A stretch of DNA of 64,000 nt from Microgenomates group bacterium (lineage in GTDB: Bacteria; Patescibacteriota; Microgenomatia; Daviesbacterales; UBA10151). The notes beneath the pieces were generated by a model. That model did no database searches. It saw only the letters and a program-made list of their open reading frames with translations, and was not told the origin of the DNA. Location of the stretch: positions 448,589-512,588 of the forward strand of contig JBAZXP010000001.1 of assembly GCA_041659805.1 (NCBI GenBank), in the 5' to 3' direction. This document shows, in pieces, positions 8,400 through 58,603 of this stretch. The position numbers were made by a program, and so were the translations under genes. Within the stretch, counting starts at the first letter, position 1, and each line of letters begins with the position of its first letter.

Positions 8400-8470
8400 A
8401 ATCTAATGAATCATATTGTAAGAATTGAGGTCTTGTCAACCTTAAACTATCTGTCTATTATATTTGGTAC

Positions 8471-15718: not shown

Positions 15719-15731
15719 GTATACTCATAGC

Positions 15732-24255: not shown

Positions 24256-24277
24256 AAATTTTTAAAACTCGCTACTG

Positions 24278-25504: not shown

Positions 25505-25510
25505 CTAAAT

Positions 25511-26386: not shown

Positions 26387-26389
26387 AGA

Positions 26390-40312: not shown

Positions 40313-40315
40313 TTT

Positions 40316-41827
40316 ATGAAGTCTTCAATTCAATGGATTAAACGAAATCGGTTTGAAGCAATTATTATTATTTTGATAATAGTGGTGGCCTCTTTTCTCA
40401 GATTTTATAAGCTTTCTGATTACATGACTTTTTTAGGTGATGAGGGCAGGGATGCTTTAATAGTTAAAGATATCTTAGTTGAGCATATTATCCCCTCAAT
40501 TGGTCCCCCATCATCTGTGGGGAATGTGTATTTAGGTCCTTTGTATTACTATATGATGGCGACTTCTATGGCAATTTTTTGGCTTAACCCCGTGGCTGCT
40601 GCAGGAATGGTGGCTTTGATCGGAGTGATGGCTGTTGCTCTGATTTATTATTTAGCCCGGGTTTGGTTTGGAATGTATTCTGCAATTTTATCAGCCTCAC
40701 TTTATGCCCTATCTTTTGTGGTTACTTTTTACTCCAGATCTTCCTGGAATCCTAACCCTGCCCCTTTTTTTACACTTCTGGCTGTTTTGGGGTTTTATAA
40801 AGCCAGACAAACCAAGAATTTTTTGTGGCTTATTTTAACCGGATTGAGTACTGCAGCAGCTGTGCAGATGCATTATCTGGCTTTGATTTTAATCCCGGTT
40901 TTCGGTATTTTATATATTTTTGAGCTCTTTCAGCAAAAAAAATTACAGGAATACAATTATTTTATATCAGGTGCATTTTTGGGGGTGGTGTCATTTATTC
41001 TGGTAATGTTACCGCTTATATTATTTGATTTCCGTCATGATTTTTTAAACTATCGTGGGGTTGTTGCCCTATTTACTAAAAGCGGCAGTAGCGTGAGTTT
41101 TAATCTTTTTGACAGTCTGGCAAAAATTTCACCAATTTTCGATCAAAAATTGGTTGGAAGATACTTGGGCGCAGAAAATCCGTTAATTATTTTTCTGGTT
41201 TCTATTTTTATTATTACTCCGATAATGATTGCTCTGTATAAAGTTGTTTACAAAAAAGAAGCAATGAGCTGGTCAATAAAAGCTCTTAGTGTTTGGCTGG
41301 CGGTAGGTCTTTTTGGGGTCTCCTTATTCAGACTGGAAGTATATGATCATTATCTGGGTTTTTTGAGCCCTGTGCCATTTTTACTTTTAGGTGCTTTTAT
41401 TTTTGAATTGCCTGATAAATGGAAAAAAATTGCAGCAGCGCTAATTATTATTATATTGGGATTTTTGAATTTGCAGCAAAACGTATTGTTTAAGCCTGCA
41501 GGTAATCAATTTACCCGTACTCGGGAAATTGCACAATTTGTGCTTAATGAAGCCGGAAATAAACCTTTTAATTTTGCTTTGATTTCAAAAAATAATTATG
41601 ATTCAGCGTATCAATTTTATTTCTATATTTACGGGCATGAACCCAAAGTAGTGCCAATTGATGTGACTGACCAATTGTTGGTTGTTTGTGAGGATCCTAT
41701 ATGTAAACCTGTCGGTAATGCCAAGTATGAAATTGCAGGATTCGGCTGGACTTTAATGGATAAAGAAACTTATTTTGACGGAGTCAGAATTTATAGACTT
41801 ATACATAATTCGGCTCAGCCCAAATGA
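40316..41827 (+). CDS. Polytopic membrane protein, GT-C-like (family C)
   Basis: 503 aa with FLGDEGRDALIVKDIL...GPLYYY. It is a paralog of 12650 and 41824 and sits 4 nt after the upstream stop. Confidence 0.5.
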   Translation: MKSSIQWIKRNRFEAIIIILIIVVASFLRFYKLSDYMTFLGDEGRDALIVKDILVEHIIPSIGPPSSVGNVYLGPLYYYMMATSMAIFWLNPVAAAGMVALIGVMAVALIYYLARVWFGMYSAILSASLYALSFVVTFYSRSSWNPNPAPFFTLLAVLGFYKARQTKNFLWLILTGLSTAAAVQMHYLALILIPVFGILYIFELFQQKKLQEYNYFISGAFLGVVSFILVMLPLILFDFRHDFLNYRGVVALFTKSGSSVSFNLFDSLAKISPIFDQKLVGRYLGAENPLIIFLVSIFIITPIMIALYKVVYKKEAMSWSIKALSVWLAVGLFGVSLFRLEVYDHYLGFLSPVPFLLLGAFIFELPDKWKKIAAALIIIILGFLNLQQNVLFKPAGNQFTRTREIAQFVLNEAGNKPFNFALISKNNYDSAYQFYFYIYGHEPKVVPIDVTDQLLVVCEDPICKPVGNAKYEIAGFGWTLMDKETYFDGVRIYRLIHNSAQPK

Positions 41828-43323
41828 AAAGAATAAAGAAAGAAATTCAATCTCATAAAATATATTATTTTTTAGTTTTCGTCATCTTACTTTGTGCTTT
41901 TGTTTTAAGGGTGTGGAGAATAGATCAGCTATTGGGTTTTTATTTTGATCAGGGCAGGGACGCCTTAATAGTGGACCAGATACTTCATGGAAAATTGACG
42001 CTTATCGGTCCAACAACTGGGATTGAAGGAATTTTTTTAGGACCGTTTTATTATTATTTTTTAAGCATTGGATATCTACTGGGACAGGGAAACCCCGCTG
42101 TTGCCTCAATTTTTCAAACCTTTTTTGTAATTGTCGGACTACTAATTACATTTTTAATAGGCAGAATATTTTTTTCATTCAGGGTTGGTCTGATTGCCAT
42201 GTTTTTAATGACTTTTTCATTTTCTCAAATAAAATTAGACCGCTGGTTATCAAACCCAACGCCGGCTATTTTATTTGGTCCCCTGACCATATTTTTTCTT
42301 TTATTAAGTTTTAATAATCCAAATATATTTTTGCCCCTTTCGGCTTTTTCTGTGGGTTTATTAATGCAACTTGAAGCCTCCAGCAGTTTTATTTTAATGA
42401 TTTTAACATTCTTGTTTATTATTATTTTCAGAAAAAAATTCACCCCAAAATCAATTATGTTTGCGTGTCTAGCTTTTTCTGCTACATTACTACCACAAAT
42501 TATTTTTGAATTAAAACATGATTTTTTGATCACAAAATTATTACTCAGTTTTCTTGGCGGTAATGTTCAGACAACAGGGGTATCAACTTTCCAATTTCCA
42601 ACAACCTTAACTTTTCAAAACAGACTTGATCTTTATGCTGTAACTTTTTTGGGTGAATTGAAACTGGATTTTGATAAAAGTTTTAGTTTTCTATTTATTA
42701 TTTTCTTAATTGCCAGCTTTCTATATATAACAAAAAACTGGTCTAAAATGGCAATTAAATTAATGGTAATTTGGTTTTATGGTTCACTGATTTTTTTCCT
42801 ATTTTATAGCGGAAACTATGGCTCTATAAACAGCTATTATTTTATTCCGGTACTACCGATATTTTTTATATTTATTGCCTTGCTTTTAGAATGGGGTTTT
42901 AAATTCAAAATATCTATTCCAATTGTGGCTTTGTTATTGGCACTATTTCTATATGATCAGCTGCCGATGTCACTCAGCTATCTTTCCAGTGGAGTAGAAG
43001 GGGATACCACAATTGCTTTGGGTAGCCAGGTAAATGCTGTGAAATATGTACTTAATAATGCAAGCGATAAAGAATATAACTGGGACGCTTATGTACCCCC
43101 TGTAATACCTTATACTTATACATATTTATTTAAGTATTACGGAAATAAATACCAACGTATGCCGACAGATGCTCAGGTAAGTACTCTTTATACTATTCAT
43201 GAAGTGGACATATCACATCCTGACAGAGAAACTGCATGGTTAAAAAGACAAGCCGGAATTGGTAAAATAATAGATACACAAAGATTTGGTGGTGTAACTG
43301 TAGAGAGACGAGAAAGAATATGA
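41824..43323 (+). CDS. Polytopic membrane protein, GT-C-like (family C)
   Basis: 499 aa with FDQGRDALIVDQILHGKLTLIGP...GPFYYY. An ATGA overlap with the upstream gene indicates coupling. Confidence 0.5.
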   Translation: MKRIKKEIQSHKIYYFLVFVILLCAFVLRVWRIDQLLGFYFDQGRDALIVDQILHGKLTLIGPTTGIEGIFLGPFYYYFLSIGYLLGQGNPAVASIFQTFFVIVGLLITFLIGRIFFSFRVGLIAMFLMTFSFSQIKLDRWLSNPTPAILFGPLTIFFLLLSFNNPNIFLPLSAFSVGLLMQLEASSSFILMILTFLFIIIFRKKFTPKSIMFACLAFSATLLPQIIFELKHDFLITKLLLSFLGGNVQTTGVSTFQFPTTLTFQNRLDLYAVTFLGELKLDFDKSFSFLFIIFLIASFLYITKNWSKMAIKLMVIWFYGSLIFFLFYSGNYGSINSYYFIPVLPIFFIFIALLLEWGFKFKISIPIVALLLALFLYDQLPMSLSYLSSGVEGDTTIALGSQVNAVKYVLNNASDKEYNWDAYVPPVIPYTYTYLFKYYGNKYQRMPTDAQVSTLYTIHEVDISHPDRETAWLKRQAGIGKIIDTQRFGGVTVERRERI

Positions 43324-44063
43324 AAAATATCAAATTGACTGTTGTTATTCCTGCTTTTAATGAAGCAGACAATCTTAAAAAAGGCGCTCTGGAGTCCGTT
43401 TACCAGTATCTTAAAAATCAAAAATATAGTTATGAGGTTTTGATTGTTGATGACGGTTCGTTAGACGCAACAGTGACACTTGTTGAAAGTGTTATTAAAA
43501 ATATGCCCGGTTTTAGAATTGTAAAAAACTCTCACGGCGGTAAGGCGATTACAGTCATGAGCGGTTTGCTTATGAGCAATGGGGAGATCGCCCTTTTTAC
43601 AGATATGGATCAGGCTACCCCTATTGATCAAATAGAAAAGCTTTTACCAAAATTTGAAGAAGGATTTGATATTGTGATTGGTTCAAGACATGGTAGGGAA
43701 GGCGCACCGGCCATCCGCAAATTAATGGGTTGGGGGTTTTCTGTTTTACGAAAACTAATATTGGGTCTGCCTTTTGCTGATACGCAATGCGGATTTAAAG
43801 CATTTAATAAAAAATCCATTCAGCTGATATTTCCGGAACTTTTGGAAAGGTGGAAAAAGACCGGGACAAGCGGGGCTGCAGTAAATGCAGGTTTTGATGT
43901 CGAGACGCTTTTTATTGCCAGAAAAAAAGGATTAAAAATTGCTGAAGTTCCTGTTGACTGGAGACATGTCGGAACAGAACGGGTACAGGCAGTCAGGGAC
44001 TCTTTGGAGGCGTTAAAAGACATGGCACGTATTAAAATTAATGATATACAAGGGAAGTATTAA
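43320..44063 (+). CDS. GT2 polyprenol-phosphate glycosyltransferase (Dpm1/ArnC-like)
   Basis: 247 aa with LTVVIPAFNEADNL...VLIVDDGSLDAT...FTDMDQA. It overlaps the upstream stop. Confidence 0.75.
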   Translation: MKNIKLTVVIPAFNEADNLKKGALESVYQYLKNQKYSYEVLIVDDGSLDATVTLVESVIKNMPGFRIVKNSHGGKAITVMSGLLMSNGEIALFTDMDQATPIDQIEKLLPKFEEGFDIVIGSRHGREGAPAIRKLMGWGFSVLRKLILGLPFADTQCGFKAFNKKSIQLIFPELLERWKKTGTSGAAVNAGFDVETLFIARKKGLKIAEVPVDWRHVGTERVQAVRDSLEALKDMARIKINDIQGKY

Positions 44064-45435
44064 ACGCTTTTTTCAAAGTAAAATTGATTCCGTAATTGTT
44101 GCACTGCTTGCTTTATCGCTGCCCCTTTTTTTCTACAAACTCGGTCAGTCATCGCTGGAGAATTGGGATGAGGCCTGGTATGGAGAGATTGCTAAAAACA
44201 TATTTCATTCAGGTGATTTTCTCAATTTAACTTTTAACGGTAGTCCATATTTTGATCATCCGCCGTTTGTTTTTTGGTTGATGTCACTTACATATAAAAT
44301 TTTTGGTGTATCTGAGTTTTGGACTAGATTTGCCAGTGCCGGGGCCGGTTTTCTTTGTATTGTGATTTTATATTTTTTAGGGAAAGAGTTATTTAACCGC
44401 ACAGTTGGATTTGCCTCAGCCGTAGCTTTGTCTTCTGCAATCTGGTTTGTGTACCGCGCCCGTTCAGGCAATCTGGATGTTATTTTAACAACTCTTTTTG
44501 TACTTACATTTTATCTGGCGTTTAAGGCAGTAAAAAATAAAAAATTCTTAATCCCCTTTTCAGTCAGTTTATCTTGTTTATTTCTAACCAAATCTATGGT
44601 TCCTTTTACGATTATCCTGTCGCTGTTGTTAATTTTTTGGGGGAATAAAAATTATAAAATTAAAGAATATGTAATACCCCTTTTGATATTTATTTTATCT
44701 ACAGGTGTTTGGTTTATCGATCAACTAATTAATCAGCCGAATTTTACCGGGAGATATTTAAGCATCGGTTTGCCCGGTTTAACAACGGAAACTTCTTATT
44801 TAAACAATTTTAATCTTGCAAAAGGGTATTTACATAGCGGTATTGGGAAATGGTTTTGGCCGGGGGTGTTTTCTATGTTTTTGGGATTGTTTCTTTTTCA
44901 AAAAAGATTTTTTGTTTTCTCTCTTTTTTTCCTGGTGTTTTTTATACCTTTAATATTTTCCACAAAAGGACAAATTTGGCATTTAATACCATTGCATCCG
45001 TTTCTTATTCTGATGTTTTTCGGTGCAAGTTCGTTTTTACTAGAAAAAATAATTAAAAACAGAATCTTAGTAACTATTTTGCTAATCGGGATATCCTTTT
45101 ACTTTTCGTTTATGCAAATTAGGCAAATATGGTTTCAATTTATCGATATTCCGGCCTTTATTTCTGATGAGGCAATTCTTTCAAAAGAAGCAGGATTATA
45201 TAGTGATAAATTTTATATTGATGGTGATTTTGTTCCGGTGGCTGTTTTTTATTCCGGCAGGGAGGTGGAAATAATTAGGTATAATGGTTTGAAAACAATA
45301 TTCAGTTACAACCAGCCATTTTTGCTCATTACTGTAAAATGGAGGCTGGATGAAGCTAACATTCCAGAGAGTAGATACCGTATAATAAAAACAGATCGTG
45401 ATAAAATTTTGATTCAGGGAAACATTAATGAATAA
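44041..45435 (+). CDS. ArnT/PMT-like GT-C glycosyltransferase (GT39/GT83-like)
   Basis: 464 aa. The first-loop motif ENWDEAWYGEIAKNI...FDHPPFVFWLMS is the PMT_2/ArnT signature, and about 11 TM helices are predicted. Confidence 0.6.
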   Translation: MIYKGSIKRFFQSKIDSVIVALLALSLPLFFYKLGQSSLENWDEAWYGEIAKNIFHSGDFLNLTFNGSPYFDHPPFVFWLMSLTYKIFGVSEFWTRFASAGAGFLCIVILYFLGKELFNRTVGFASAVALSSAIWFVYRARSGNLDVILTTLFVLTFYLAFKAVKNKKFLIPFSVSLSCLFLTKSMVPFTIILSLLLIFWGNKNYKIKEYVIPLLIFILSTGVWFIDQLINQPNFTGRYLSIGLPGLTTETSYLNNFNLAKGYLHSGIGKWFWPGVFSMFLGLFLFQKRFFVFSLFFLVFFIPLIFSTKGQIWHLIPLHPFLILMFFGASSFLLEKIIKNRILVTILLIGISFYFSFMQIRQIWFQFIDIPAFISDEAILSKEAGLYSDKFYIDGDFVPVAVFYSGREVEIIRYNGLKTIFSYNQPFLLITVKWRLDEANIPESRYRIIKTDRDKILIQGNINE

Positions 45436-46978
45436 AGGATTAAAGATTATTTTATATAATATTTTGCAACATAAATGGGAATCTTTGGCCTTTGTTTTGA
45501 TTATCATTTTATATTTTGGATTAAGGTTGCCTAACTTAACCCTACAGCCCATTTTTGCAGATGAAGCGATTTATATAAGATGGGCTCAGATCATGAAGGC
45601 AGAACCAACCCTGCGTTTTATTTCTCTTACTGACGGAAAGACACCTTTGTTTATGTGGGTAATGACTCCTTTTTTCAAGATGTTTAATGATCCTTTGTTT
45701 GCAGGTAGAGTTATATCTGTTTTATCAGGTTTTATGACTATGCTTGGAGGAATGTTTTTAGGTTGGAGATTTTTTGACAGGAAAGTTGCCCTTTGGTCGG
45801 GTTTGCTGATTGCTGTCACCCCATTTGTTTTATTTTTTGACAGGATGGCTTTGGTTGATTCTATGTTGGCAGCGTTTTCTATTTGGTCTTTAATTTTTGC
45901 ATTAATTTTGGTTAAAAGCCCCCGTTTTGATTTAAGTATGATATTGGGTTACATACTAGGCGGGGGACTCTTAACAAAGACTCCAGGTTTGTTTAATGTT
46001 TTAATGCTTCCTGCTGCATTTTTTGCATTTAACTGGTCTTTTGATAATAGGCAAAAGAATTTTATTAAAACTGCCGGATTTTTTGTAATTGCAGCAGCAA
46101 TTGCTATGGGAATATATAATTTGCTCCGTTTAGGCCCGGGCTTTGAGAGCCTTTCTTCCCGAAATCAGGATTATATTTTCCCTTTCACAAGAATATTTAC
46201 CAATCCTCTGGACCCTTTAGTCCCTCATTTAAAGGATTTAGCTGATTGGTTTTTCAAGTTGATTACTTTGCCAATATTGTTATTTACAATACTGGGAATA
46301 ATTTTGACATTAGTCAAAAGGAATAAAGTTGCTTTGGTAATTTTGCTTTGGTTGCTTGGTCCATTAACAGCTGAGTTATTTTTACTGCAAACATTTACTG
46401 CCAGATATATTTTATCAGCAATTGCTCCGTTATTATGTTTGTCAGGTTTAGCAATAAGCTTTGTTGTAGAAAAAAGCCGGTTCAAAAAAGAGGTTACCTA
46501 TCTTGCTATTCTGGTGTTTATTTTACCGATGGCTTTGATGTTTAACTTTACCCTATTAACCGATCCGGCAAAAGCGGATTTACCCCGCGAAGAAAGAATC
46601 GGTTATTTTGAAGATTGGACAGCAGGTTATGGTTTTCCGCAAATCGCAGATTTTCTTATTCAACAAGCACAAAACGGGCTGGTAGTTGTCGGGACGGAAG
46701 GTAATTTTGGGACACTTCCTGATGGTTTGACAATTTATTTAGATAAATATTTCCATACTCAGGGGGTAAATAAAATAGTAGTTTTGGGTGGAAAAGGAAC
46801 CATTACTGATGTATTGCGCGATAGTGCAAAAAGAGGACCTACATATTTTATTGCCAATAGGTCTAGGGTGACTCAAAATCCGCCGAATACAGAATTGATT
46901 AAGGAATATCCAAAGGCTAATTTCCCCGGAGCTTTTAAGGATTCTATTTTGGTCTTTAAGGTAAGTCCTGTTAAATGA
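45428..46978 (+). CDS. ArnT/PMT-like GT-C glycosyltransferase
   Basis: 516 aa with FADEAIYIRWAQIM in the loop after TM1 and a multi-TM body. A C-terminal soluble domain follows. Confidence 0.55.
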   Translation: MNKGLKIILYNILQHKWESLAFVLIIILYFGLRLPNLTLQPIFADEAIYIRWAQIMKAEPTLRFISLTDGKTPLFMWVMTPFFKMFNDPLFAGRVISVLSGFMTMLGGMFLGWRFFDRKVALWSGLLIAVTPFVLFFDRMALVDSMLAAFSIWSLIFALILVKSPRFDLSMILGYILGGGLLTKTPGLFNVLMLPAAFFAFNWSFDNRQKNFIKTAGFFVIAAAIAMGIYNLLRLGPGFESLSSRNQDYIFPFTRIFTNPLDPLVPHLKDLADWFFKLITLPILLFTILGIILTLVKRNKVALVILLWLLGPLTAELFLLQTFTARYILSAIAPLLCLSGLAISFVVEKSRFKKEVTYLAILVFILPMALMFNFTLLTDPAKADLPREERIGYFEDWTAGYGFPQIADFLIQQAQNGLVVVGTEGNFGTLPDGLTIYLDKYFHTQGVNKIVVLGGKGTITDVLRDSAKRGPTYFIANRSRVTQNPPNTELIKEYPKANFPGAFKDSILVFKVSPVK

Positions 46979-48657
46979 TGAAAAAAGTAGTGCATTTGTT
47001 TAAAAACCCTTTTGTTCTGCTTTTAATTTTTATCATCCCAAGTTTTGTCTATTTAGTACGTCCGGGATTTTTCCCGATGCAGGATGATTTGCAGGCGTTT
47101 AGAATCCAGCAAATGGATAAATGTTTTTCAGATTTTCAATTTCCCTGCCGTTGGGTACCGGATGCTGGGTATCAATATGGATATCCTCAATTTATTTACT
47201 ATCCGCCCAGTGTTTATTATTTAGGAGAACTTTTTCATTTAGCAGGTTTTCAAATTATAGATTCCGTCAAGATTTTATTTATTTTAGGATTTATTTTAGC
47301 TGCAGTTACAATGTTTATTTTGCTTAAAGAAATATTCGGAGTTTTTCCTGCATTTGTGGGTAGTATTTTATATACTTATGCGCCATATCGCGCTGTTGAT
47401 GTTTATGTCAGAGGAGCAATGAGCGAATTTTGGTCTTTTGTTTTTTTCCCTCTAATTTTTTGGTCTATCTATAAATTGATTAAATCGAAAAATGATAAAT
47501 ATATTATATGGTGTGCGATTTCTGTAGGATTATTACTTCTTACCCATAATTTGATGTCTTTGATCTTTATCCCTATTGCAGCGGTTTGGGGGATTTTTTG
47601 GATCATAGCAGAAAAGAATTGGAAAATATTTCCCAAAGTTATTTTTGCAGGACTTTTGGGACTTGGTCTGGCCGCATTTTTTACTTTTCCGGTAATTTTG
47701 GAAAAACAATATGCACATACAGAATCAATGTTGGGCGGATATTTTGATTACAGACAACATTTTGTTGATATAAATCAATTGTTTATTTCTAATCACTGGG
47801 GTTATGGTTCTTCATGGCTCGGGCCAAATGACGATTTAAATCTTTCAACAGGCAGTGTGCAGGTGTTGGCCTCACTTTTAGCTTTACTCCTGGCAATTTT
47901 TTATTACAAAAAAAATAAAAAGATTGCCTTACTGACAATTGTTTTATTTATTGCTGACCTGTTTGTTTTATTTATGACCCATCAAAAATCCAGTCCGGTT
48001 TGGGATTTATTGTCACCTTTGTGGTTTTTGCAATTTCCCTGGAGATTTTTAGCTGATAGCATTTTTATATTATCTCTACTGTCTTGTATCGCAATATTTT
48101 TCCTGAACGGTAAAACATTGCAAAAAATAGTCAGTATTTTTTTAATAGCATTGGTTTTATGCTTAAATTTTAGTTTTTTCCAACCATCAAGATGGTTTGA
48201 GATGACAGATGCTCAAAAGTTTTCAGGTAAAAGCTGGGAAAAACAATTAACAGTCAGTATTTTTGATTATTTGCCGATTTATGCCAAACTTCCGCCTATT
48301 CAAAAAGCCCCGGATTATCCGGAAGTGATGGACGGGAAAGCCACGTTTGTAGGCTATAAAAAGGGGAGTGATTTTCAGGTTGGGAAAGTGGCTGCAGAGT
48401 CACCCGCAAATTTAAGGCTGCCTTTGTTTGATTTCCCGGGGATGGAAGTGAAAGTTGACGGAAAAGTTGTTCCTCACTGGCATGATGATTGCAGAAATCA
48501 GGAATTCTGTTTGGGGTTAATTAGTTTTGATATTTACCCCGGTGAGCATACAATAGAAGCAAGACTGAAGAATACTTTGATCAGAGGATTGGGGAACGGA
48601 ATAACAGTCAGCAGTTTATTAGTTTTGGGTTATTTGATTTGGAAAAACCGCAGATGA
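46975..48657 (+). CDS. YfhO-like GT-C membrane protein (paralog 1 of 3 in tandem)
   Basis: 560 aa with QDDLQAFRI, YRAVDVYVRGAMSEFWSF, QFPWRFL, and C-terminal GMEVKVDGK...YPGEHTIE. Confidence 0.55.
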   Translation: MMKKVVHLFKNPFVLLLIFIIPSFVYLVRPGFFPMQDDLQAFRIQQMDKCFSDFQFPCRWVPDAGYQYGYPQFIYYPPSVYYLGELFHLAGFQIIDSVKILFILGFILAAVTMFILLKEIFGVFPAFVGSILYTYAPYRAVDVYVRGAMSEFWSFVFFPLIFWSIYKLIKSKNDKYIIWCAISVGLLLLTHNLMSLIFIPIAAVWGIFWIIAEKNWKIFPKVIFAGLLGLGLAAFFTFPVILEKQYAHTESMLGGYFDYRQHFVDINQLFISNHWGYGSSWLGPNDDLNLSTGSVQVLASLLALLLAIFYYKKNKKIALLTIVLFIADLFVLFMTHQKSSPVWDLLSPLWFLQFPWRFLADSIFILSLLSCIAIFFLNGKTLQKIVSIFLIALVLCLNFSFFQPSRWFEMTDAQKFSGKSWEKQLTVSIFDYLPIYAKLPPIQKAPDYPEVMDGKATFVGYKKGSDFQVGKVAAESPANLRLPLFDFPGMEVKVDGKVVPHWHDDCRNQEFCLGLISFDIYPGEHTIEARLKNTLIRGLGNGITVSSLLVLGYLIWKNRR

Positions 48658-50327
48658 TAAAAAATTTAACAAAATATTGGGCAGTTTGGGTATTAGTAAT
48701 TTTTATTGCCAGTGTTTCATGGCCGCTTTCTTTGCCCGGTTATTTTTCCCATCATGATGATTTACAGATTATGCGCATTTTTGAAATGAGGCGTTGTTTA
48801 ATTGATGCCCAAATCCCCTGCCGTTGGGTTCCTGATATGGGGTATGGAAACGGTTTCCCTCTTTTTAATTATTACAGCGCCCTACCTTATTATATAGGTG
48901 CGGTACTGAGTTTTTTGCTGGGCTATATTTGGTCGGCAAAGGTTTTATTTTTTATCCCTTTAATTTTAGGAGGTTTTTCTATGTATCTTTTAGGCAAAGA
49001 ATTATTTGGCAAAATTGCCGGAATAGTTTCTGCTGTTTTATATTTGTTTGCTCCTTATTTAGCACTGGATCTATACGTCAGAGGTGCTGTGGCTGAAAGT
49101 TTTGCATTATCAATTGTGCCTTTGGTTTTTTATTTTATTTTAAGATTGATTAAGCAGTCATCTTTTAAAAACTTTGCAGGATTGTCTGTTTCTTTTGCAG
49201 CTTTTTTAATCAGTCACAATATTATGACATTATTTTTTGCACCCATTATCTTTCTTTGGACTTTATGTTTTTCATATTCCGAAAAATTAAAAAGAATATG
49301 GCTGGTTTTTATAGGTTTAATATTAGGATTCGGAATGGCTGCATTTTTTATTCTTCCTGCATTTTTTGAAAAGTCCCTCGTTCAGTCAGATTCTTTGATA
49401 CAAATGGATTTGAATTTCAGGGCAAATTTTGTGGCAATTAATCAACTCTTCCTGGAACGTTTTTGGGGTTACGGAGCTTCAACTTTTGGCTCGAATGATA
49501 CTATATCTTTTCAGATAGGTTGGCCGCATTGGTGGCTTATGGCTCTATCAATTCCGTTTTTGATTATCGGTATTTTTACCCGAAAATTAAAATTAAATCA
49601 AATTTTGTTACCAGTTTTTCTGATAGTTATTTTTTGCTTTTCAGTCTTTATGACTCATAATCAATCTGCGTTTATTTGGGAAAAAATTGATGTTTTAAAA
49701 TATGCTCAATTTCCATGGAGATTTTTATCCTTGGCTGTTTTTACATCCAGTTTAATCGGTGGTTTTTTTGTTTTTGTTCTAAGGAACAAAGGACAACAGG
49801 TCATTCTGGCATCAGTAATTATTTTTATAACAGTATTTTTAAACTGGAGTTATTTCAAACCTGATAAATTTTATTTGAGTATGACAGATCAGGAAAAACT
49901 TACAGGTTCTTTGTGGGAAGATCAACAAAAAGCAGCAATTACAGATTATTTGCCCAAGACAGCATTAGAACCGAGGGAAAAAGCTCCGAATAGTCCGCTT
50001 TTAGTTTCAGGTAAGGCAGAAATCAGTTCATTTGCAAACTATTCAAATAAGTGGTTTTTTAAAACGAATGTTATAGAAACTTCTAAAATAGATATTCCTG
50101 TTTTTGATTTTCCGAATTGGCAAGTTTCTGTAAATGGCTCTGATTATCCTCATAATCATCAAAATTTAATCGGGAGGATAAATATCGATCTTCCGCCCGG
50201 ATCATATGAGGTAAGCGGTAATTTTAAAAATACTCAATTACGGACATTTGCAGATACCTTATCCTTAATATCTTTGGGATTATTAATCTTATTTTCTTAT
50301 GGAAAGTTTAAAAAAATATTTATCTGA
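48639..50327 (+). CDS. YfhO-like GT-C membrane protein (paralog 2 of 3)
   Basis: 562 aa with HDDLQIMRIFE, YLALDLYVRGAVAESF and QFPWRFL. It overlaps the upstream gene by 19 nt. Confidence 0.55.
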   Translation: MEKPQMIKNLTKYWAVWVLVIFIASVSWPLSLPGYFSHHDDLQIMRIFEMRRCLIDAQIPCRWVPDMGYGNGFPLFNYYSALPYYIGAVLSFLLGYIWSAKVLFFIPLILGGFSMYLLGKELFGKIAGIVSAVLYLFAPYLALDLYVRGAVAESFALSIVPLVFYFILRLIKQSSFKNFAGLSVSFAAFLISHNIMTLFFAPIIFLWTLCFSYSEKLKRIWLVFIGLILGFGMAAFFILPAFFEKSLVQSDSLIQMDLNFRANFVAINQLFLERFWGYGASTFGSNDTISFQIGWPHWWLMALSIPFLIIGIFTRKLKLNQILLPVFLIVIFCFSVFMTHNQSAFIWEKIDVLKYAQFPWRFLSLAVFTSSLIGGFFVFVLRNKGQQVILASVIIFITVFLNWSYFKPDKFYLSMTDQEKLTGSLWEDQQKAAITDYLPKTALEPREKAPNSPLLVSGKAEISSFANYSNKWFFKTNVIETSKIDIPVFDFPNWQVSVNGSDYPHNHQNLIGRINIDLPPGSYEVSGNFKNTQLRTFADTLSLISLGLLILFSYGKFKKIFI

Positions 50328-51987
50328 ACATTTTTGGATTTTGATTTTACCTTTAAGCTACTTTAGTGTGAAGGCTCTTTTTGTACCCGGTTTTTATGGT
50401 GCTTCAGATGACTTACATATTGCTTGGTTATTTGAACTTGACCACTTAATTAAATTAGGTCAATTTCCACCACGTTTTGTGCCGGATTTAAGTTTCGGAT
50501 TCGGTTATCCGTTATTTAATTTTGTTTTTCCGCTGCCTTTTTATATAGGAGAAATATTTCATCTATTTGGTCTGAATTTTGTAGATAGTATCAAGACTGC
50601 TTTTTTATTAAGTGTGCCTTTATCGGGGATTTTTATGTATCAGTTTCTAAAAAGTTTTACTTCTAAACTTTTAAGTTTGGCGGGAGCTGTTATATATATG
50701 TATACCCCATACAGATCAACGGATATTTATATCAGAGGAGCAATTGGTGAGATAATTGCTTTTGTTTTTTTACCTCTGATTGCATTATCTGTAGTAAATC
50801 TTTCAGCAGAAAATAGCAGTTCTAAGCTGTCATTAAATTTCAGATGGATTGGAATCGGTGCGCTGTCACTTGCTGCCTTAATACTTACTCATAATATAAC
50901 CGCATATATGTTTCTTCCTTTTATTTTTATTTTAGCAATAGTCAGGTTAATCGTTTTCAAAAGAATCTTAAACAATTTACTAAATTTGTTTGTTTCTTTT
51001 TTGCTTGGGTTATTAATCAGCCTTTATTTTTGGTTTCCGGCAATATTGGATAGTAGTTTAATGAAATATGACACTGTTTTTAATTTTGTTGATCATTTTC
51101 CGACACTGCAACAATTAATTATTCCCTACTGGGGGTATGGTGCTTCTGTACCGGGACCAAATGACGGAATGTCATTTTATATCGGTTCAGTCAGTTTAAT
51201 GATTCTGATTGTTGGTTTATTGCTGATTATTTTGATGTGGAAGAAATTTTCAAATAATCAGAAAATAATTACTTGTTGGGCTGGTACCTCTTTTTTGATT
51301 GCTTTTTTGATGATGAATTTCAGATCAATTTTTATTTGGCAGAATGTGCCGTTAATTCCTTATTTCCAATTCCCGTGGAGATTTTTAATTATCACTACTT
51401 TTATGGTTCCGGTTTTTGTAATTGTTTTCGATAAAATAAAATATAAGGGATTTATAGCCTTAGTAATTATATTTTTATCACTCGTTACAAACTTTAATGA
51501 TTTTCACCCGCATGATAATTTAGGAAGAACTGATAATTATTATTTAAATAACTATATTCCTTTGCCTACTGCAAGCAAGGATTATTCTTTGTTACATGAG
51601 GAATATTTAAGATTACCAGTAGGTACAATTAGCCGTCCTGATAAAAATTACCCGCGCGTTTTTCCTCAGACTGATCAGGTAAAGGAAGTAATTGAGGTAG
51701 ATAGTTTAACGACTTTAATTAAAACCCAATCAAATGAAAAATTTACAATAAATTATAATAAGTATTATTTCCCAGGTTGGTATGCAAAAATCGATAATCA
51801 GGAAACTGAAATTTCTGCGGGTGATCCCTTTGGTCAGATTCAGTTGAATATTCCTTCGGGGCAGCATGAAGTTAAAATTGGATTTAGAGAGACACCTTTT
51901 AAATTATTCGCTGATATTGTCTCGTTGTCTGCTTTTATTGTTACAATGTATTTAATATTCGGATTAAAGGAATTTAAAAAAATATGA
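50299..51987 (+). CDS. YfhO-like GT-C membrane protein (paralog 3 of 3)
   Basis: 562 aa with SDDLHIAWLFE, YRSTDIYIRGAIGEII, QFPWRFL, and C-terminal YFPGWYAKIDNQETEI. Confidence 0.55.
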   Translation: MESLKKYLSEHFWILILPLSYFSVKALFVPGFYGASDDLHIAWLFELDHLIKLGQFPPRFVPDLSFGFGYPLFNFVFPLPFYIGEIFHLFGLNFVDSIKTAFLLSVPLSGIFMYQFLKSFTSKLLSLAGAVIYMYTPYRSTDIYIRGAIGEIIAFVFLPLIALSVVNLSAENSSSKLSLNFRWIGIGALSLAALILTHNITAYMFLPFIFILAIVRLIVFKRILNNLLNLFVSFLLGLLISLYFWFPAILDSSLMKYDTVFNFVDHFPTLQQLIIPYWGYGASVPGPNDGMSFYIGSVSLMILIVGLLLIILMWKKFSNNQKIITCWAGTSFLIAFLMMNFRSIFIWQNVPLIPYFQFPWRFLIITTFMVPVFVIVFDKIKYKGFIALVIIFLSLVTNFNDFHPHDNLGRTDNYYLNNYIPLPTASKDYSLLHEEYLRLPVGTISRPDKNYPRVFPQTDQVKEVIEVDSLTTLIKTQSNEKFTINYNKYYFPGWYAKIDNQETEISAGDPFGQIQLNIPSGQHEVKIGFRETPFKLFADIVSLSAFIVTMYLIFGLKEFKKI

Positions 51988-53477
51988 ACGATGATATTGA
52001 ATCAGGTGAACACCTGGATGCTACCTCTGAGATAACGCTGGATTTGGTAAAAAAGCGCGCTGTTCGTGGGGTTGCAACATTAACCGGAAGAACAATATTT
52101 ACTCAAGTTGTAGGGCTTGTGGCAACTTTCTTATTAACTATTTTTTTAACTCCGAATCAATTTGGAATTTATTTTATAGTCAGTGCTGCAGTTAATTTTT
52201 TTACATATTTTTCTGATATAGGACTCGGAGCAGCGATTATTCAGAAAAAAGAACGTTTAACTAGAAAAGACCTGGAAACAACTTTTACTATTCAAAATGC
52301 ATTGGTTCTAACATTGGTAGTGATTATTTTTTTAATTACGCCTCTTCTTAAAAGTTGGCAACATTTGGATACTGAATCAGTATATTTATTGTGGGCACTG
52401 GCATTCGGACTTTTATTGTCTTCTTTAAAAAGTGTACCGTCGTTACTTCTAGAAAGAGAATTGGATTTTAATAAATTAGTTATTCCGCAAATGTTTGAGT
52501 TCTTACTATTTCAGGTTATTGCAGTGTTCTTAGCATGGAGAGGGTTCGGGATCACGAGCTATACAATTGCAGTTATTGTAAGCCGTATCGCAGGGCTCGC
52601 GGCGATTTTTATCGTTCGTCCTTGGAGGCCCGGCTTTGCTTTTGATATTGAATCTCTGAAAGGTTTGCTTCGTTTTGGTTTGCCTTATCAGATTAATACT
52701 TTTTTGGCATCTATTAAGGATGACGGTATGACAGTATTTTTGGGAGGAATTTTAGGACCGGCAAATATTGGGTTATTGGGTTGGGCGCAAAAATGGGGAA
52801 ATGCACCTCTGCGTTTTTTTATGGATCAGGTGATTAAGGTTACTTTTCCGGCTTATGCACGTATGCAGGATCATAGAGAAGAGCTATCAAAAGCGGTTTC
52901 AAAATCTATTTTCTTTATCAGTGTATTAGTTTTTCCGACGGTTGCTTTATTAGTATTTCTTTCACCTATATTAGTTAGCATTATTCCGAAGTATGGAAAA
53001 TGGCAACCAGCTATTTTAGCCCTCGGTTTAATTTCTATTAATACTCTTTTGGCTTCAGTAAATACACCTTTAGTTAATGCGCTGAATGCGATTGGAAAAA
53101 TCAAAATAACTTTTCGCCTAATGATTATGTGGACGGTACTGACATGGGTATTAGTACCAACATTGGCGTACTTTTACGGTCTTAATGGTGCAGCTTTAGG
53201 ATATGCACTGGTTGGCACAAGTGCAGTAATCGCAATTTATATTGTAATGAAATATATTCCGATTAATTTATGGAAGAGTATAGGATCGCCCACTATTGCC
53301 GTAATTTTGATGGGCATTGTTTTAGCTGTCGGACGAATATATTTACCCTGGTCATGGATGTCAGTAATTATTTTAGGTATTTCGTCTCTGTTTGTTTATG
53401 CACTTTTACTTTTTATTTTAGTGGGGCCATCAATATGGCTGGATGTAAAAAAAATAGTTCTGAATGTTAAAGATTAA
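51984..53477 (+). CDS. MOP-superfamily polysaccharide/oligosaccharide flippase (Wzx-like)
   Basis: 497 aa with about 14 TM helices. It has the charged N-terminal cap, short loops and overall architecture of Wzx/MurJ family flippases. An ATGA overlap links it to the upstream gene. Confidence 0.55.
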   Translation: MNDDIESGEHLDATSEITLDLVKKRAVRGVATLTGRTIFTQVVGLVATFLLTIFLTPNQFGIYFIVSAAVNFFTYFSDIGLGAAIIQKKERLTRKDLETTFTIQNALVLTLVVIIFLITPLLKSWQHLDTESVYLLWALAFGLLLSSLKSVPSLLLERELDFNKLVIPQMFEFLLFQVIAVFLAWRGFGITSYTIAVIVSRIAGLAAIFIVRPWRPGFAFDIESLKGLLRFGLPYQINTFLASIKDDGMTVFLGGILGPANIGLLGWAQKWGNAPLRFFMDQVIKVTFPAYARMQDHREELSKAVSKSIFFISVLVFPTVALLVFLSPILVSIIPKYGKWQPAILALGLISINTLLASVNTPLVNALNAIGKIKITFRLMIMWTVLTWVLVPTLAYFYGLNGAALGYALVGTSAVIAIYIVMKYIPINLWKSIGSPTIAVILMGIVLAVGRIYLPWSWMSVIILGISSLFVYALLLFILVGPSIWLDVKKIVLNVKD

Positions 53478-53490
53478 TCATTAGTAAATT

Positions 53491-56400
53491 ATGGTATTTT
53501 TTAAAAAACTTTTTTTCAGTTTAATTATTTTTTTATGTTTAAGTTTAGTTTCATCTGTTTACGCGGTTGATAACTCTTTTGTGACGGTAGTGAACCCTAT
53601 TAGAGGAAATGATTTTTGGGATCAACCAAGTCAGAAAATAGAAACAGCTGTTTTGGGTCAAATTCAAATTTTAAATGAGTTTAGGCTTCCTGCTACATTT
53701 TTAATCCGTTTTGATGCATTTTCATCTGATAAAACAATCAATGTATTAAAAAATTCAGGTTATGAAAAAGGATTATTTTTGGAAGTAACTCCTTCCTGGA
53801 CTAAAGCCGCGGGAGTGAGTTACAGGCAATCTGCTGTCTGGCATTTGGCAGGAAGTGTTTTTTTAAGCGGTTATGAGACGCAGGAAAGAAATAAATTAAT
53901 TGATACAGCATTCGAAGAGTTTAAAAAAACATTCGGTTTTTATCCGAAATCTGTGGGAGCTTGGTGGATTGATAGTTACTCGCTTGAGTACATGCAGACA
54001 AAATACAATATTGATGCAGCATTGATTGTGGCAGACCAATATTCAACAGATAACTATCAAATCTGGGGACAATATTTCGCAACCCCATATTATCCTGCCA
54101 AGAAAAATGCCTTAATGCCCGCACAGGATGTTAAAAATAAAATTTCGGTCGTCATGATGCAGTGGGCAACCAGAGACCCTATAAATGGCTATGGGGAAGG
54201 GGTGAATGAAACAACTTACAGCGTGCAGGCAAATGATTATATTGATTATCATAAATTAAATTCAGATTACTTCGGGAAGTTAATTGATTTGTATACAACA
54301 CAGCAATTTAACCAATTTAATCAGCTTGTTGTAGGTTTGGAAAATTCCTATTCCTGGCAAAAATATGAATCTGAATACCGTAAACAGATTGAAATATTAA
54401 GTAACAGGCAGCAAAAAGGACAATTATCAATCTTAACAATGGCAGATTTTGCTAAATGGTATGAACGCACATTCCCTGATTTATCCCCTGCACAAATAAT
54501 TGTGGCAAATGACCCGTTGGGTTCTTCTAAAAAAGTTGTATGGTACATGAATCCTTATTACCGCGCTGGTTGGTTTTACAATCAAAACGGGAGTGCCTTC
54601 CGTGATATCAGACAATATGTCGAAGGGGAGACAGAACCCTGCTACCTTTCAGCATGTCAGCAAATAAACTTTGCTACTTTTTCAACAAGAGTGCTTGATG
54701 ATGTGACTTACGGACAAAAATTAGTTTTGGATAAAGGTAAGATTAATGATTTTAATGTTAAAAAAGGTACGGGATTTATTTTAAACTATACTAATGAAGC
54801 CGAAAGAAAAAGACAAATTAGTTTTTTGCCAAGAGATATTTCAATTGATGACAAAATCAGCTCGATTGATAATTTAATCTTGCAGACCAAGAATACTCAA
54901 ACTGATAGTTCTAAAATAAAAGTTGAATTTACGCCGGGTACTACTAAGTATTTTCAAGAGTCATCCGGCACTTTGATTATTAATATTCTAAAATTTCTTT
55001 TATTTGTTATTTTAGGCTTATTTATTCCGGGGTTTTTGATTGTTAAATTTTTAAAACAAGAATCAGTATTTCTAAATATATTTTTATCCATATGCAGTGG
55101 TTTTGTTATGTTAGTTTTGATGTCTTTTGCTGTAGGTTATTTAAAAATGTTTTGGCTGACATATATTTATGTAGCACTTTCTTTTTTAATTTTTATTTTT
55201 GGAAAATTCTACAAGGAGATATCTTTTAGAGAAATAAATTTACCTAAAATCAAAAATTTATTACCAGTCATAATAATTATATTCTTTGGGACTATCTTTC
55301 AATCATTAATAATGATCCGTTCAGGTTGGGTTTATGATTTTGGAATCGGTTTTTGGGGTCCTACAGGTCATGATATGGTTTGGCACCAGGCATTGGTTAA
55401 TCAATTAATTAACAATGTTCCTCCTCAAAATCCAATTTTAGCCGGAGAATCATTGCAGGGATACCACTATTTTTATGATTTATTAGTCGCAGATACATTT
55501 CGGTTAACCCAAATTTCTATTTTGGATTTACTCTATAGATTTTATCCTGTAATGTTTTCTATATTTTTAGGAATCGGGACTGTTTGTTTGCTTAACAGAA
55601 TTACCAAAAATAAAATTATTGTTTTAATTTCTTTATATTTTGTTTATTTTGCAGGTAGCTTTGGTTGGATTGTTACATATCTCCGAGATAAGATTTTTAG
55701 CGGGGAATCAGTCTTTTGGGTCAATCAACCTGTTTCGATGAATCTTAACCCGCCCTTTGCGATTTCTTTAATTCTAATGATTGCGATTATTTTATTAGTG
55801 ATCGTTTTTAGACTGAGAAAAAGTGTTTGGTGTTCTGCCTTGCTGGTTTTGCTTATTGGGACTTTGGTTGAATTTAAGGTTTATGCAGGGGTGGTGGTAC
55901 TGGGTGGTATGTCTGTAATGGTTTTGACAGAAATTCTTTTCAGGAGAAACTTTGAATACTTAAAGATTTTTTCTGTGGCGGCAATTGTTTCAATAGTATT
56001 GTTTATATCTCAAAATAAAGGCGCAATCGGATTATTGGTTTGGTCTCCGTTTTGGTTTATTGACTCGATGATTGATTCTCCGGATAGGGTAGGGTGGGCT
56101 AAATTATCTTCTGCAAGGCTTGCCTATTTTGAAAGGGGAGAGTGGTTAAAATATGTAGCTATCGAAGTTTTATCCTTGAGTATATTTATTTTGGGTAATT
56201 TGGGACTTAGAATAATATCTTTTTCCAGGATAAATCTCTTATTTAAAAAAGACTTTTGGCAAACAACAGAATATCCTTTTATGCTTTTTATGGGGTTTGC
56301 ATCTCTAATAATTCCGATATTTTTGATTCAAAAAGGTAACCCCTGGAATACGATTCAATTTTTGTACTATTTAATTTACTTAATTGCTCTTTCTGCAGGT

Positions 56401-56928
56401 TTCGGACTATATGCTTTATATAGAAAATTACCAAAAATTATCGGACTAGTATTTTTAGGGATTGTTCTGTTATTGGCGCCTGTTAATGCAGTAGTGTCTT
56501 TTACGGATACTTTGGGTCAAATACCGCCTGCTTCACTTAGCCAAAATGAGTTGGAAGCATTAAATTTTCTTGCCAAACAGCCGGATGGGGTCGTTTTGAC
56601 TTACCCCTATAACGATTCATTGAACAGTAAATTTTTAACCCCAATTCCTCTTTTTGCTTATACAACCTCAGCTTATGTTTCTGCTTTTTCCGGGAAGCAA
56701 ACATATATTGAAGACACTATGCAAAATGAAATTTTACAGACAGATTACAATCCGAGACTCGTTGCAGCAGAAGATTTTTTTAGTAGCGGCATAATGCCAC
56801 CAAGTTTGGAAGGGAAAATAAGATATGTTTATCTGCCTAAGTTTTTTGAAATTAATGTAGATACAAGTAAACAATGGAAAAAGATTTTTGAAAATAAGGA
56901 AGTATTAATCTATGAGATTAGTAGTTAA
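53491..56928 (+). CDS. Giant polytopic membrane protein: N-terminal extracytoplasmic domain (about 480 aa) plus a GT-C-like multi-TM module plus a C-terminal extracytoplasmic domain
   Basis: 1145 aa with a signal/TM segment followed by a soluble domain of unknown fold. About 14 TM helices carry WHQALVNQLINNVPPQNPILAGESLQGYHYFYD. The tail resembles the protein at 60488..62443. Confidence 0.45.
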   Translation: MVFFKKLFFSLIIFLCLSLVSSVYAVDNSFVTVVNPIRGNDFWDQPSQKIETAVLGQIQILNEFRLPATFLIRFDAFSSDKTINVLKNSGYEKGLFLEVTPSWTKAAGVSYRQSAVWHLAGSVFLSGYETQERNKLIDTAFEEFKKTFGFYPKSVGAWWIDSYSLEYMQTKYNIDAALIVADQYSTDNYQIWGQYFATPYYPAKKNALMPAQDVKNKISVVMMQWATRDPINGYGEGVNETTYSVQANDYIDYHKLNSDYFGKLIDLYTTQQFNQFNQLVVGLENSYSWQKYESEYRKQIEILSNRQQKGQLSILTMADFAKWYERTFPDLSPAQIIVANDPLGSSKKVVWYMNPYYRAGWFYNQNGSAFRDIRQYVEGETEPCYLSACQQINFATFSTRVLDDVTYGQKLVLDKGKINDFNVKKGTGFILNYTNEAERKRQISFLPRDISIDDKISSIDNLILQTKNTQTDSSKIKVEFTPGTTKYFQESSGTLIINILKFLLFVILGLFIPGFLIVKFLKQESVFLNIFLSICSGFVMLVLMSFAVGYLKMFWLTYIYVALSFLIFIFGKFYKEISFREINLPKIKNLLPVIIIIFFGTIFQSLIMIRSGWVYDFGIGFWGPTGHDMVWHQALVNQLINNVPPQNPILAGESLQGYHYFYDLLVADTFRLTQISILDLLYRFYPVMFSIFLGIGTVCLLNRITKNKIIVLISLYFVYFAGSFGWIVTYLRDKIFSGESVFWVNQPVSMNLNPPFAISLILMIAIILLVIVFRLRKSVWCSALLVLLIGTLVEFKVYAGVVVLGGMSVMVLTEILFRRNFEYLKIFSVAAIVSIVLFISQNKGAIGLLVWSPFWFIDSMIDSPDRVGWAKLSSARLAYFERGEWLKYVAIEVLSLSIFILGNLGLRIISFSRINLLFKKDFWQTTEYPFMLFMGFASLIIPIFLIQKGNPWNTIQFLYYLIYLIALSAGFGLYALYRKLPKIIGLVFLGIVLLLAPVNAVVSFTDTLGQIPPASLSQNELEALNFLAKQPDGVVLTYPYNDSLNSKFLTPIPLFAYTTSAYVSAFSGKQTYIEDTMQNEILQTDYNPRLVAAEDFFSSGIMPPSLEGKIRYVYLPKFFEINVDTSKQWKKIFENKEVLIYEISS

Positions 56929-56942
56929 AATAAAATAATAAA

Positions 56943-58595: not shown

Positions 58596-58603
58596 AAGAT
58601 TAT

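Follow-up and report, generated by a model that had tools for sequence, protein, structure and literature searches.

A 64,000-nucleotide stretch of a Microgenomates group bacterium genome (assembly GCA_041659805.1, contig JBAZXP010000001.1, positions 448,589 to 512,588; hereafter the window, to which all coordinates refer) carries three tandem forward-strand genes for paralogs A (46975–48657, 560 aa), B (48654–50327, 557 aa) and C (50299–51987, 562 aa), and a fourth, forward-strand paralog, D (11025–12680, 551 aa), lies in a second cluster. All four are glycosyltransferases of the glycosyltransferase-C (GT-C) fold that belong to the PF10131 branch, and are short-form relatives of YfhO rather than members of the YfhO family. 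The duplications that gave rise to A, B and C are ancient and the copies non-redundant, as each paralog has its own orthologue group at 50–60% identity and a ratio of nonsynonymous to synonymous substitution (dN/dS) of 0.05–0.15. We lean towards a reading in which A, B and C serve the same pathway at non-redundant acceptor or linkage steps, with the enzymes probably physically associated.

An all-against-all BLASTP comparison among the window's large membrane proteins aligned the paralogs over their full length, with 37% identity between A and B (E 5e-113), 29% between B and C (E 5e-65) and 28% between A and C (E 4e-57), while D is 27–28% identical to each of the three (E 1e-51 to 3e-58). A preliminary description of this DNA had proposed three tandem paralogs of about 560 aa each, and the open reading frames (ORFs) 46975–48657, 48639–50327 and 50299–51987 bear this out; it was also right that the copies have diverged, although the measured range of 28–37% sits slightly below the 30–40% it gave. 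The ORF listing extends B to a TTG at 48639 (562 aa), and independent gene calls start it at the ATG at 48654, which leaves a 4-nt overlap with the stop of A; C overlaps B by 29 nt. The fourth copy, described as starting at 10911, is likewise real. Its ORF opens with the TTG at 10911, and the exact database match is called as 551 aa, making the GTG at 11025 the most likely start; with this start the overlap with the 9490–10950 gene disappears. The mechanically listed starts of both B and D are probably too far upstream.

The four-way alignment of A–D contains 53 invariant columns, among them DD37-38, R59, PY137-138, D142, Y144, RG146-147, E151, HN191-192, WGYG275-278 and QFPWR353-357. The motifs previously listed as shared are all present and fall in these columns, with two minor deviations, SDDLH in place of DDLQ in C and QFPWRLH in D. 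The similarity extends over the full length and lies far beyond chance, which answers the concern that these motifs might be coincidental or of low complexity. Two independent Logan assemblies contain A, B and C proteins identical to those of the window, and a 1.13 Mb contig at NCBI, under the label Microgenomates group bacterium, has an identical A. Given these intact, identical copies in independent assemblies, the three genes are neither assembly artefacts nor pseudogenes.

The best Pfam family for the paralogs is PF10131 (PTPS_related), which belongs to the GT-C clan CL0111. B (43.9 bits) and D (31.8 bits) score above its 26.4-bit cut-off and A, at 26.0 bits, falls 0.4 short, while C gave no match at all in the Pfam scan of the window protein. 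Against the YfhO family PF09586, A reaches 22.9 bits, below the cut-off of 28.5, and the same scan returned no PF09586 match for B, C or D; an NCBIfam scan gave nothing useful for the paralogs. The PF10131 alignment covers only model positions 1 to ~320–336 of 621, so that the C-terminal half of the paralogs lies outside it. When matches at E ≤1e-3 are counted across orthologues, PF10131 is found in 35 of 38 proteins of the A set (A orthologues plus the window's B, C and D), 38 of 40 B orthologues and 17 of 40 C orthologues, as against 20/38, 1/40 and 1/40 for YfhO. Some orthologues are already labelled 'YfhO family' or 'PTPS-related' by NCBI, and those of D carry the name '6-pyruvoyl-tetrahydropterin synthase-related protein'. 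The PF10131 branch is large, with 20,683 representative clusters at E ≤1e-3 and 6,713 at E ≤1e-30.

Profile alignment with hhalign nevertheless connects the A family to the YfhO family of gene 15732 across 312 columns of the transmembrane (TM) core, at 99.4% probability and E 5e-21, and does so for the C family at 99.2%. The earlier label 'YfhO-like' is thus right at the superfamily level and fails at the family level, where A–D stay below the PF09586 threshold and PF10131 fits best. The product of gene 15732 (15732..18068, forward strand, 778 aa), here protein E, is in turn a bona fide YfhO-family GT-C enzyme that scores 40.4 bits on PF09586, above the 28.5 cut-off, and all of its homologues among the matches listed (at least 120) carry PF09586 under the NCBI name 'YfhO family protein'. 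It had been counted as a fifth copy; genuine YfhO though it is, it is a distant relative from outside the A–D subfamily, linked to A–D by BLASTP only through a weak match to the C terminus of C (E 3e-4).

AlphaFold2 models of A (built from 38 sequences; predicted local distance difference test score (pLDDT) 88.4, predicted template modelling score (pTM) 0.89) and C (42 sequences, comprising the window paralogs and database matches; pLDDT 87.0, pTM 0.90) have nearly superimposable secondary-structure maps. Both run from TM1 through a long first loop and about ten more TM helices to a beta-sandwich and a last TM helix; the beta-strand domain, at 450–531 in A and 461–529 in C, is the C-terminal beta-rich domain that the preliminary description had noted. 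We assigned membrane sides from the predicted helices and the positive-inside rule, with lysine and arginine making up 11 of 33 residues in predicted inner loops and 25 of 293 in outer segments. On this assignment each paralog would have about 12 TM helices and two cytoplasmic termini, and would hold an external beta-sandwich of ~130 residues between its last two helices. The beta-sandwich has matches to accessory beta-domains of glycoside hydrolases in Foldseek, and because these are weak and local we only tentatively ascribe carbohydrate binding to it.

Foldseek searches of both models against the PDB returned solely GT-C enzymes below E 1e-2 and no other fold below E 0.1. The list for C is headed by AftD (2e-4, TMq 0.49), followed by AftA, STT3, Emb, ArnT and Pmt4; that for A has STT3 and AglB (2.8e-4) first, then ArnT (4.3e-4), AftA, Emb, PglB, Pmt, DPY19 and ALG12. 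Foldseek assigned a probability of 1.00 to STT3, AglB, ArnT, AftA, AftD, PglB, Pmt4, DPY19 and ALG12. GT-C enzymes are expected to have 8–13 TM helices and, in an extracellular loop, an acidic motif of the DXD type or its modified form (DDX); the paralogs agree with this, with about 12 helices and a DD pair in a loop predicted to be external. DD37-38 lies directly after TM1 and is at least 90% conserved in all three orthologue groups, and with this pair kept throughout, A, B and C appear catalytically intact, none being an obvious pseudo-enzyme. The active site is predicted to face outward, formed by the DD pair with which the first external loop opens and by R59, PYR-D-Y-RG-E, HN, WGYG and QFPWR.

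Conservation across the three groups is concentrated on the same side of the membrane. The same residue is found at ≥90% in all three at 41 positions, 31 external, 10 within TM helices (several of which adjoin an external loop) and none cytoplasmic. A further 16 positions are conserved within each group but differ between groups, and 14 of these are external. The segment after TM11 reads D..K(F/L).G..WE.Q...DYLP in A and B and takes a different, equally conserved form in C, R.D.YY...YIP...EEYLRLP; the first external loop has a conserved Cys pair, C50/C58, in A and B and none in C, and A has another such pair at C506/C512.

YfhO of B. subtilis has 13 TM helices, with a 389-aa extracellular loop separating the final two (PMC5836110). 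In B. subtilis, S. aureus and L. monocytogenes this GT-C enzyme acts with CsbB and GtcA to place N-acetylglucosamine (GlcNAc) on lipoteichoic or wall teichoic acid. A–D share with YfhO a homologous TM core and the placement of a domain, here predicted to be extracytoplasmic, ahead of the final TM helix and after the one before it; like YfhO, the family also shares a (here presumed) operon with a donor synthase of glycosyltransferase family 2 (GT2). They differ from it in the size of the external domain (~130 aa as opposed to ~390), in having ~12 TM helices, and in total length (~560 aa as opposed to ~780–860). Their host also differs, being a bacterium of the candidate phyla radiation (CPR) that has a separate true YfhO, 15732, in the same window.

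To follow the family beyond the window, a pattern scan with one genome per GTDB species yielded 302 loci with relatives, and ORFs of ≥150 aa in these loci were classified against the window proteins. The best 80 of the 302 loci, which we used, come from Daviesbacteria, Woesebacteria, Shapirobacteria and other Microgenomates, and display a recurring block of a 45428-like gene (genes are named by their start in the window), A, B, C, sometimes an extra paralog or a GT87-like gene, a flippase and a 53491-like gene. Clustering separated clean orthologue groups for A (n=81), B (n=62) and C (n=60), with D apart from all three. In many relatives a fourth tandem copy follows C; we rejected its identification as a D ortholog, since the ~18 such paralogs cluster apart from D. 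Orthologues are ~50–60% identical between Daviesbacteria, Woesebacteria and Shapirobacteria, compared with 28–37% between paralogs. Among the 66 species-level loci that reach 5.5 kb or more downstream of A, 44 keep the order A-B-C and the remaining 22 are AB, AC, A-x-B or A-C-x variants. Across 49 loci the B-to-C junction has a median of −29 nt, which is also its value in the window.

Compared with the nearest relative with DNA (L003), dN/dS is 0.05 for A, 0.15 for B and 0.12 for C; with dS saturated at 1.3–2.7, these ratios indicate purifying selection only and carry no site-level signal. Together with the orthologue groups and the gap between orthologue and paralog identities, this upholds the earlier claim of an old, retained duplication. 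A view in which the three genes are recent, redundant copies or pseudogenes in decay, or encode hydrophobic proteins that resemble each other by chance, is barely credible, and we consider it refuted by the full-length BLASTP E values of 1e-51 to 1e-113, by ORFs that are intact in independent assemblies, by separate orthologue groups that span several candidate phyla and by dN/dS well below 1. Among the loci surveyed, many third-party annotation records of metagenome-assembled genomes titled 'uncultured Gammaproteobacteria' (L007–L011 and others) carry the array at 50–62% identity to the window. As the array is of the Microgenomates type, these titles look like mislabels.

Within the window, A, B and C are part of a 14-gene run on the forward strand (39614..60491) whose junctions are overlaps of 4–32 nt or gaps of ≤14 nt, and the shared strand and tight junctions lead us to presume an operon. 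Its first gene is a short GT2 (39614..40312; PF00535 1.3e-28). A second, soluble GT2 of the GT-A fold without a TM segment (43320..44063; PF00535 2.9e-25) has PgfS, ArnC, dolichyl-phosphate hexose transferase and AglJ as its best NCBIfam matches, all far below the equivalog cut-offs, and presumably makes the lipid-linked sugar donor. Directly upstream of A, with a 4-nt overlap, stands a PMT_2-type GT-C gene (45428..46978; PF13231 9.4e-13). On the other side, a Wzx/MOP-type polysaccharide flippase (51984..53477; PF13440 (Polysacc_synt_3) 1e-51, PF01943 2.6e-29) overlaps C by 4 nt at its stop, and a 1145-aa polytopic membrane protein of unknown family with ~15 hydrophobic segments follows (53491..56928). 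Ahead of the run, on the same strand, lies a GT2 fused to a GtrA/DPMS-type TM domain (37202..38386; PF00535 2.9e-19, PF04138 3.3e-20), whose domain content makes it a second candidate lipid-sugar synthase and flippase element.

Much of this neighbourhood recurs in relatives. Among the 53 loci with full 10 kb flanks around A, a 53491-like gene is found in 49, which makes it the most conserved neighbour of the triad; B and C are each present in 48, a 51984-like flippase in 46, a 45428-like gene in 43 and a 43320-like GT2 in 34. Per locus the median is one GT2 as against three paralogs of the family.

Fusions connect several of these genes. Two proteins join a GT2 to an A ortholog (P0113 and P0126, 55–58% identical to A), and P0151 joins an A-like protein to a GT2 that is 44% identical to 43320. 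P0113, an 824-aa protein at 8001–10475 of locus L083, occupies the A slot and is followed by B-like and C-like genes; its GT2 part matches 39614 weakly (32% over 93 aa). P0121 is an in-frame B–C fusion of 1093 aa at 8001–11282 of L084 that recurs in L085 and L086, that is, in three independent assemblies, and sits at the B–C slot after an A-like gene, while P0122 is a C–B fusion. The GT2–A and B–C fusions tie the genes to one lipid-linked-sugar pathway. Multi-copy proteins were also returned, one of 3329 aa with six family stretches (P0123) and one of 1670 aa with four (P0127).

From the homology, fold, motifs, synteny, fusions and selection set out above, we infer the donor, the acceptor, the order of action and complex formation of A–B–C as follows. 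On the inner face of the membrane, the co-operonic GT2 43320, possibly also 39614 or 37202, would load a nucleotide-sugar-derived sugar onto undecaprenyl phosphate. The Wzx-type protein 51984, the GtrA-domain protein 37202 or both would then flip the lipid-linked sugar, and on the outer face A, B and C would each transfer it to one envelope glycan, but at positions or stages that differ from enzyme to enzyme. Their steps would be non-redundant, as in mycobacterial EmbC/A/B, and the enzymes probably associated.

Two precedents lead us to favour acceptor steps, embCAB and the scheme of multi-component transmembrane glycosylation. In that scheme a GT-A enzyme makes a sugar linked to C55 phosphate, a GtrA- or Wzx-type flippase moves it and a GT-C enzyme transfers the sugar outside the cell (PMC8035078). 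The same set of components is present here, in the GT-A gene 43320, the flippases 51984 (Wzx-type) and 37202 (GtrA/DPMS) and the GT-C genes, with their activities predicted by sequence. Of its versions, GacI/K/L, which contains a Wzx protein, comes nearest. The GacI/GacJ/GacK/GacL system of S. pyogenes, which adds the side chain of a rhamnose polysaccharide, resembles the window in its short soluble GT-A without a TM anchor, its Wzx-type flippase and its GT-C enzyme, and we count the rmlCDB genes for dTDP-rhamnose, 6 kb upstream here, as a further likeness. On the other hand, GacL is of the PMT_2 type and not PF10131, a single GT-C enzyme stands in place of a triad plus many more, and no GacJ-like partner was identified in the window.

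The embCAB genes offer the closest organisational parallel. They encode three GT-C paralogs that are 40–46% identical, with a catalytic DD pair and a C-terminal carbohydrate-binding module; EmbC, EmbA and EmbB use the same donor and reaction with different acceptors, and EmbA and EmbB form a heterodimer (PMC7341804). The triad is likewise a set of three homologous GT-C enzymes in one (here presumed) operon with a DD pair and a C-terminal external beta-rich domain, at a divergence of 28–37% as opposed to 40–46%. The B–C fusion parallels the EmbA–EmbB heterodimer, and Emb structures are among the Foldseek matches of both A and C. Emb proteins differ in length (~1,050–1,090 aa), in having 15 TM helices and two carbohydrate-binding modules, and in a donor, decaprenyl-phospho-arabinose, and acceptors, arabinogalactan (AG) and lipoarabinomannan (LAM), that are specific to Mycobacteriales. 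There is no detectable sequence similarity between A–C and Emb, and we draw the parallel as an organisational analogy and not as membership at the sequence level.

Association could go further still. A, B and C might be subunits of one obligate hetero-oligomer, like EmbA–EmbB or Pmt1–Pmt2, with their divergence reflecting subunit roles, an idea that overlaps with the reading we lean towards and that we hold to be distinctly improbable in this strict form. The B–C fusion in three assemblies and the C–B fusion speak for it, as do the conserved gene order and overlapping junctions, the 29-nt B/C overlap included. Such fusions are feasible on the predicted topology, in which the TM helices are even in number and both termini lie inside, and GT-C heterodimers have precedents in Emb and in Pmt1–Pmt2, whose entry 6p25 is among the Foldseek matches of A. 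Some lineages, however, lack C (for example L019, L021, L047 and L065) and others lack B (for example L028, L066, L073 and L076), so a fixed three-subunit complex is not universal; full catalytic motifs are moreover present in all three proteins, and none resembles a non-catalytic scaffold.

Several observations count against non-redundant acceptor steps from a lipid-linked monosaccharide. The structural matches are remote, with TM-scores of ~0.4–0.5, and a profile search of all PDB sequences with the four paralogs gave no match up to E 10, so that the family has no close solved relative. PF10131 is listed as 'function unknown' (PMC7801869), and membership in a family without an assigned function tells little about mechanism. 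The topology was deduced from predicted helices and charge bias rather than from a computed topology or coordinate analysis. Oligosaccharyltransferases, enzymes that act on pyrophosphate-linked oligosaccharides, head the Foldseek list of A, and with a Wzx-type flippase next to the triad en-bloc transfer is conceivable. In the window, three GT2 genes lie near three paralogs, as separate donors would have it, and in L034, L041, L050 and L053 a second GT2, 34–37% identical to 43320, stands directly upstream of B. In 13 of the 53 full-flank loci, no GT2 lies within 10 kb although the three paralogs are present.

The oligosaccharyltransferase matches bear on an alternative in which the adjacent Wzx protein flips pyrophosphate-linked oligosaccharides and A–C transfer or polymerise them, as an oligosaccharyltransferase, ligase or polymerase. 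We regard this as very unlikely. STT3 and AglB are indeed the best matches of A, the flippase gene overlaps the stop codon of C and is widely kept, and one A ortholog has a weak Wzy_C match and another an STT3 match. However, the fusion partners are GT2 enzymes of the polyprenyl-monophosphate hexosyltransferase type, no STT3-type C-terminal domain was matched beyond the shared TM core, at TM-scores of only ~0.4, and the monophosphate-sugar users ArnT, AftA, AftD and Emb score equally well and come top for C. A Wzx-type protein does not by itself imply an oligosaccharide either, as GacK is thought to flip a monophosphate-linked sugar (PMC8035078).

The GT2 genes bear instead on the proposal of the preliminary description that the paralogs differ in donor, so that a common acceptor receives from each of them a sugar of its own, carried by a separate lipid-linked donor. 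Three GT2 genes (37202, 39614 and 43320) do lie in or beside the same gene run, some relatives have the second GT2 before B, A is fused to different GT2 types by lineage (43320-like in P0151, weakly 39614-like in P0113), and in Firmicutes GT-A/GT-C pairs that handle different sugars are typically adjacent (PMC8035078). The number of GT2 genes does not track that of the paralogs, though, to judge from the medians of one and three and from the 13 loci without a nearby GT2, and the window's three GT2 genes must also serve at least eight other GT-C genes of the same run. The Emb paralogs, the tandem GT-C triad studied most closely, share donor and reaction and differ only in acceptor, and the residues universal to A, B and C probably correspond to the motifs that surround the donor site in other GT-C enzymes. 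On balance, a different sugar from each enzyme is the less likely option, and we rate it as improbable; an embCAB-like arrangement of one donor and different acceptors fits better, by analogy, with neither proven.

Non-redundant acceptor steps could also be part of something larger. The A-B-C triad, the Wzx-type flippase and the 53491-family protein might form a core machine specific to Microgenomates that assembles a major envelope polymer from lipid-linked monosaccharides, nearly all of it on the outer face, with the triad as a fixed hetero-oligomeric synthase in place of three independent decorating enzymes. It would recall mycobacterial arabinan and mannan synthesis, but in a ~1.1 Mb genome; we put this forward as an unlikely extension.

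The 53491 protein possibly acts as a polymerase, a ligase or an acceptor-handling component. It has a paralog on the reverse strand at 60488–62443, and the two polytopic membrane proteins (1145 and 651 aa) are 32% identical (E 3e-83), the part of 53491 that matches 60488 being its C-terminal half. We considered 60488, and hence 53491, as a cryptic relative of the A family and rejected this at an hhalign probability of 0.5%. Neither of the two has a Pfam match or a detectable likeness to the A family, and Pfam at E ≤1 gave nothing useful for 53491, 60488, 59817, 12650 or 62488; one precomputed record gives DUF3863 for the N-terminal part.

The preliminary count of five YfhO-type enzymes in 64 kb understates the content of the window, which holds 16 GT-C-like genes. 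They start at 9490, 10911, 12650, 14195, 15732, 38383, 40316, 41824, 44041, 45428, 46975, 48654, 50299, 56943, 58604 and 62488, fall into two stretches (9490–18068 and 38383–63672) and cover 24.9 kb, or 39% of the 64 kb. For a Daviesbacteria genome with a main contig of 1.13 Mb, so many outer-face glycosyltransferases are an unusually heavy investment, with at least 2% of the DNA of a ~1.1 Mb genome devoted to GT-C enzymes. A literature search found no paper on GT-C expansions in CPR bacteria or Microgenomates, or on the function of PF10131. Two things are new relative to the searchable literature, the A-B-C triad that Microgenomates conserve, together with its fusions, and how densely GT-C genes are packed in the window. 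The fold, the family and the pathway logic are already known, and no new type of mechanism is involved. The envelopes of CPR bacteria (Patescibacteria) are almost uncharacterised, and the surface is where these mostly host-dependent cells make contact with their partners. The three paralogs, the flippase and the membrane protein of unknown family are a core conserved across Microgenomates and provide a defined, testable set of targets for the glycan that these bacteria display; work on them would bring a first functional assignment to the large PF10131 branch.

Other genes in the window relate to sugar supply and the cell surface. The rmlC, rmlD and rmlB genes of dTDP-rhamnose synthesis (30839–33281) lie upstream of the glycosyltransferase run and hold the same position in many Daviesbacteria loci, a placement that hints at rhamnose in the envelope polymer. 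Adjoining the second GT-C cluster, that of D and the YfhO gene, are a UDP-glucose/GDP-mannose dehydrogenase and a NAD-dependent epimerase/dehydratase (7110–9493), from which a pentose or a uronic-acid-derived sugar might come. P0414, a 771-aa D-like protein, has extra S-adenosylmethionine (SAM)-methyltransferase domains, which suggests that sugar methylation is coupled to the GT-C branch of D in some lineages. On the reverse strand, 23041–27070 encodes an FtsE/FtsX pair and, after it, two coiled-coil proteins resembling PcsB, of which one carries an M23 peptidase domain and the other a C39-like one. By its gene content this stretch appears to be a duplicated cell-wall hydrolase module under the control of FtsEX. 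Lipid scavenging is assumed for many CPR bacteria, so a 958-aa protein encoded on the reverse strand beside the glycosylation genes (34241–37117), with an LCAT/PGAP1-like alpha/beta-hydrolase (lipase/acyltransferase) domain, is possibly of interest as well.

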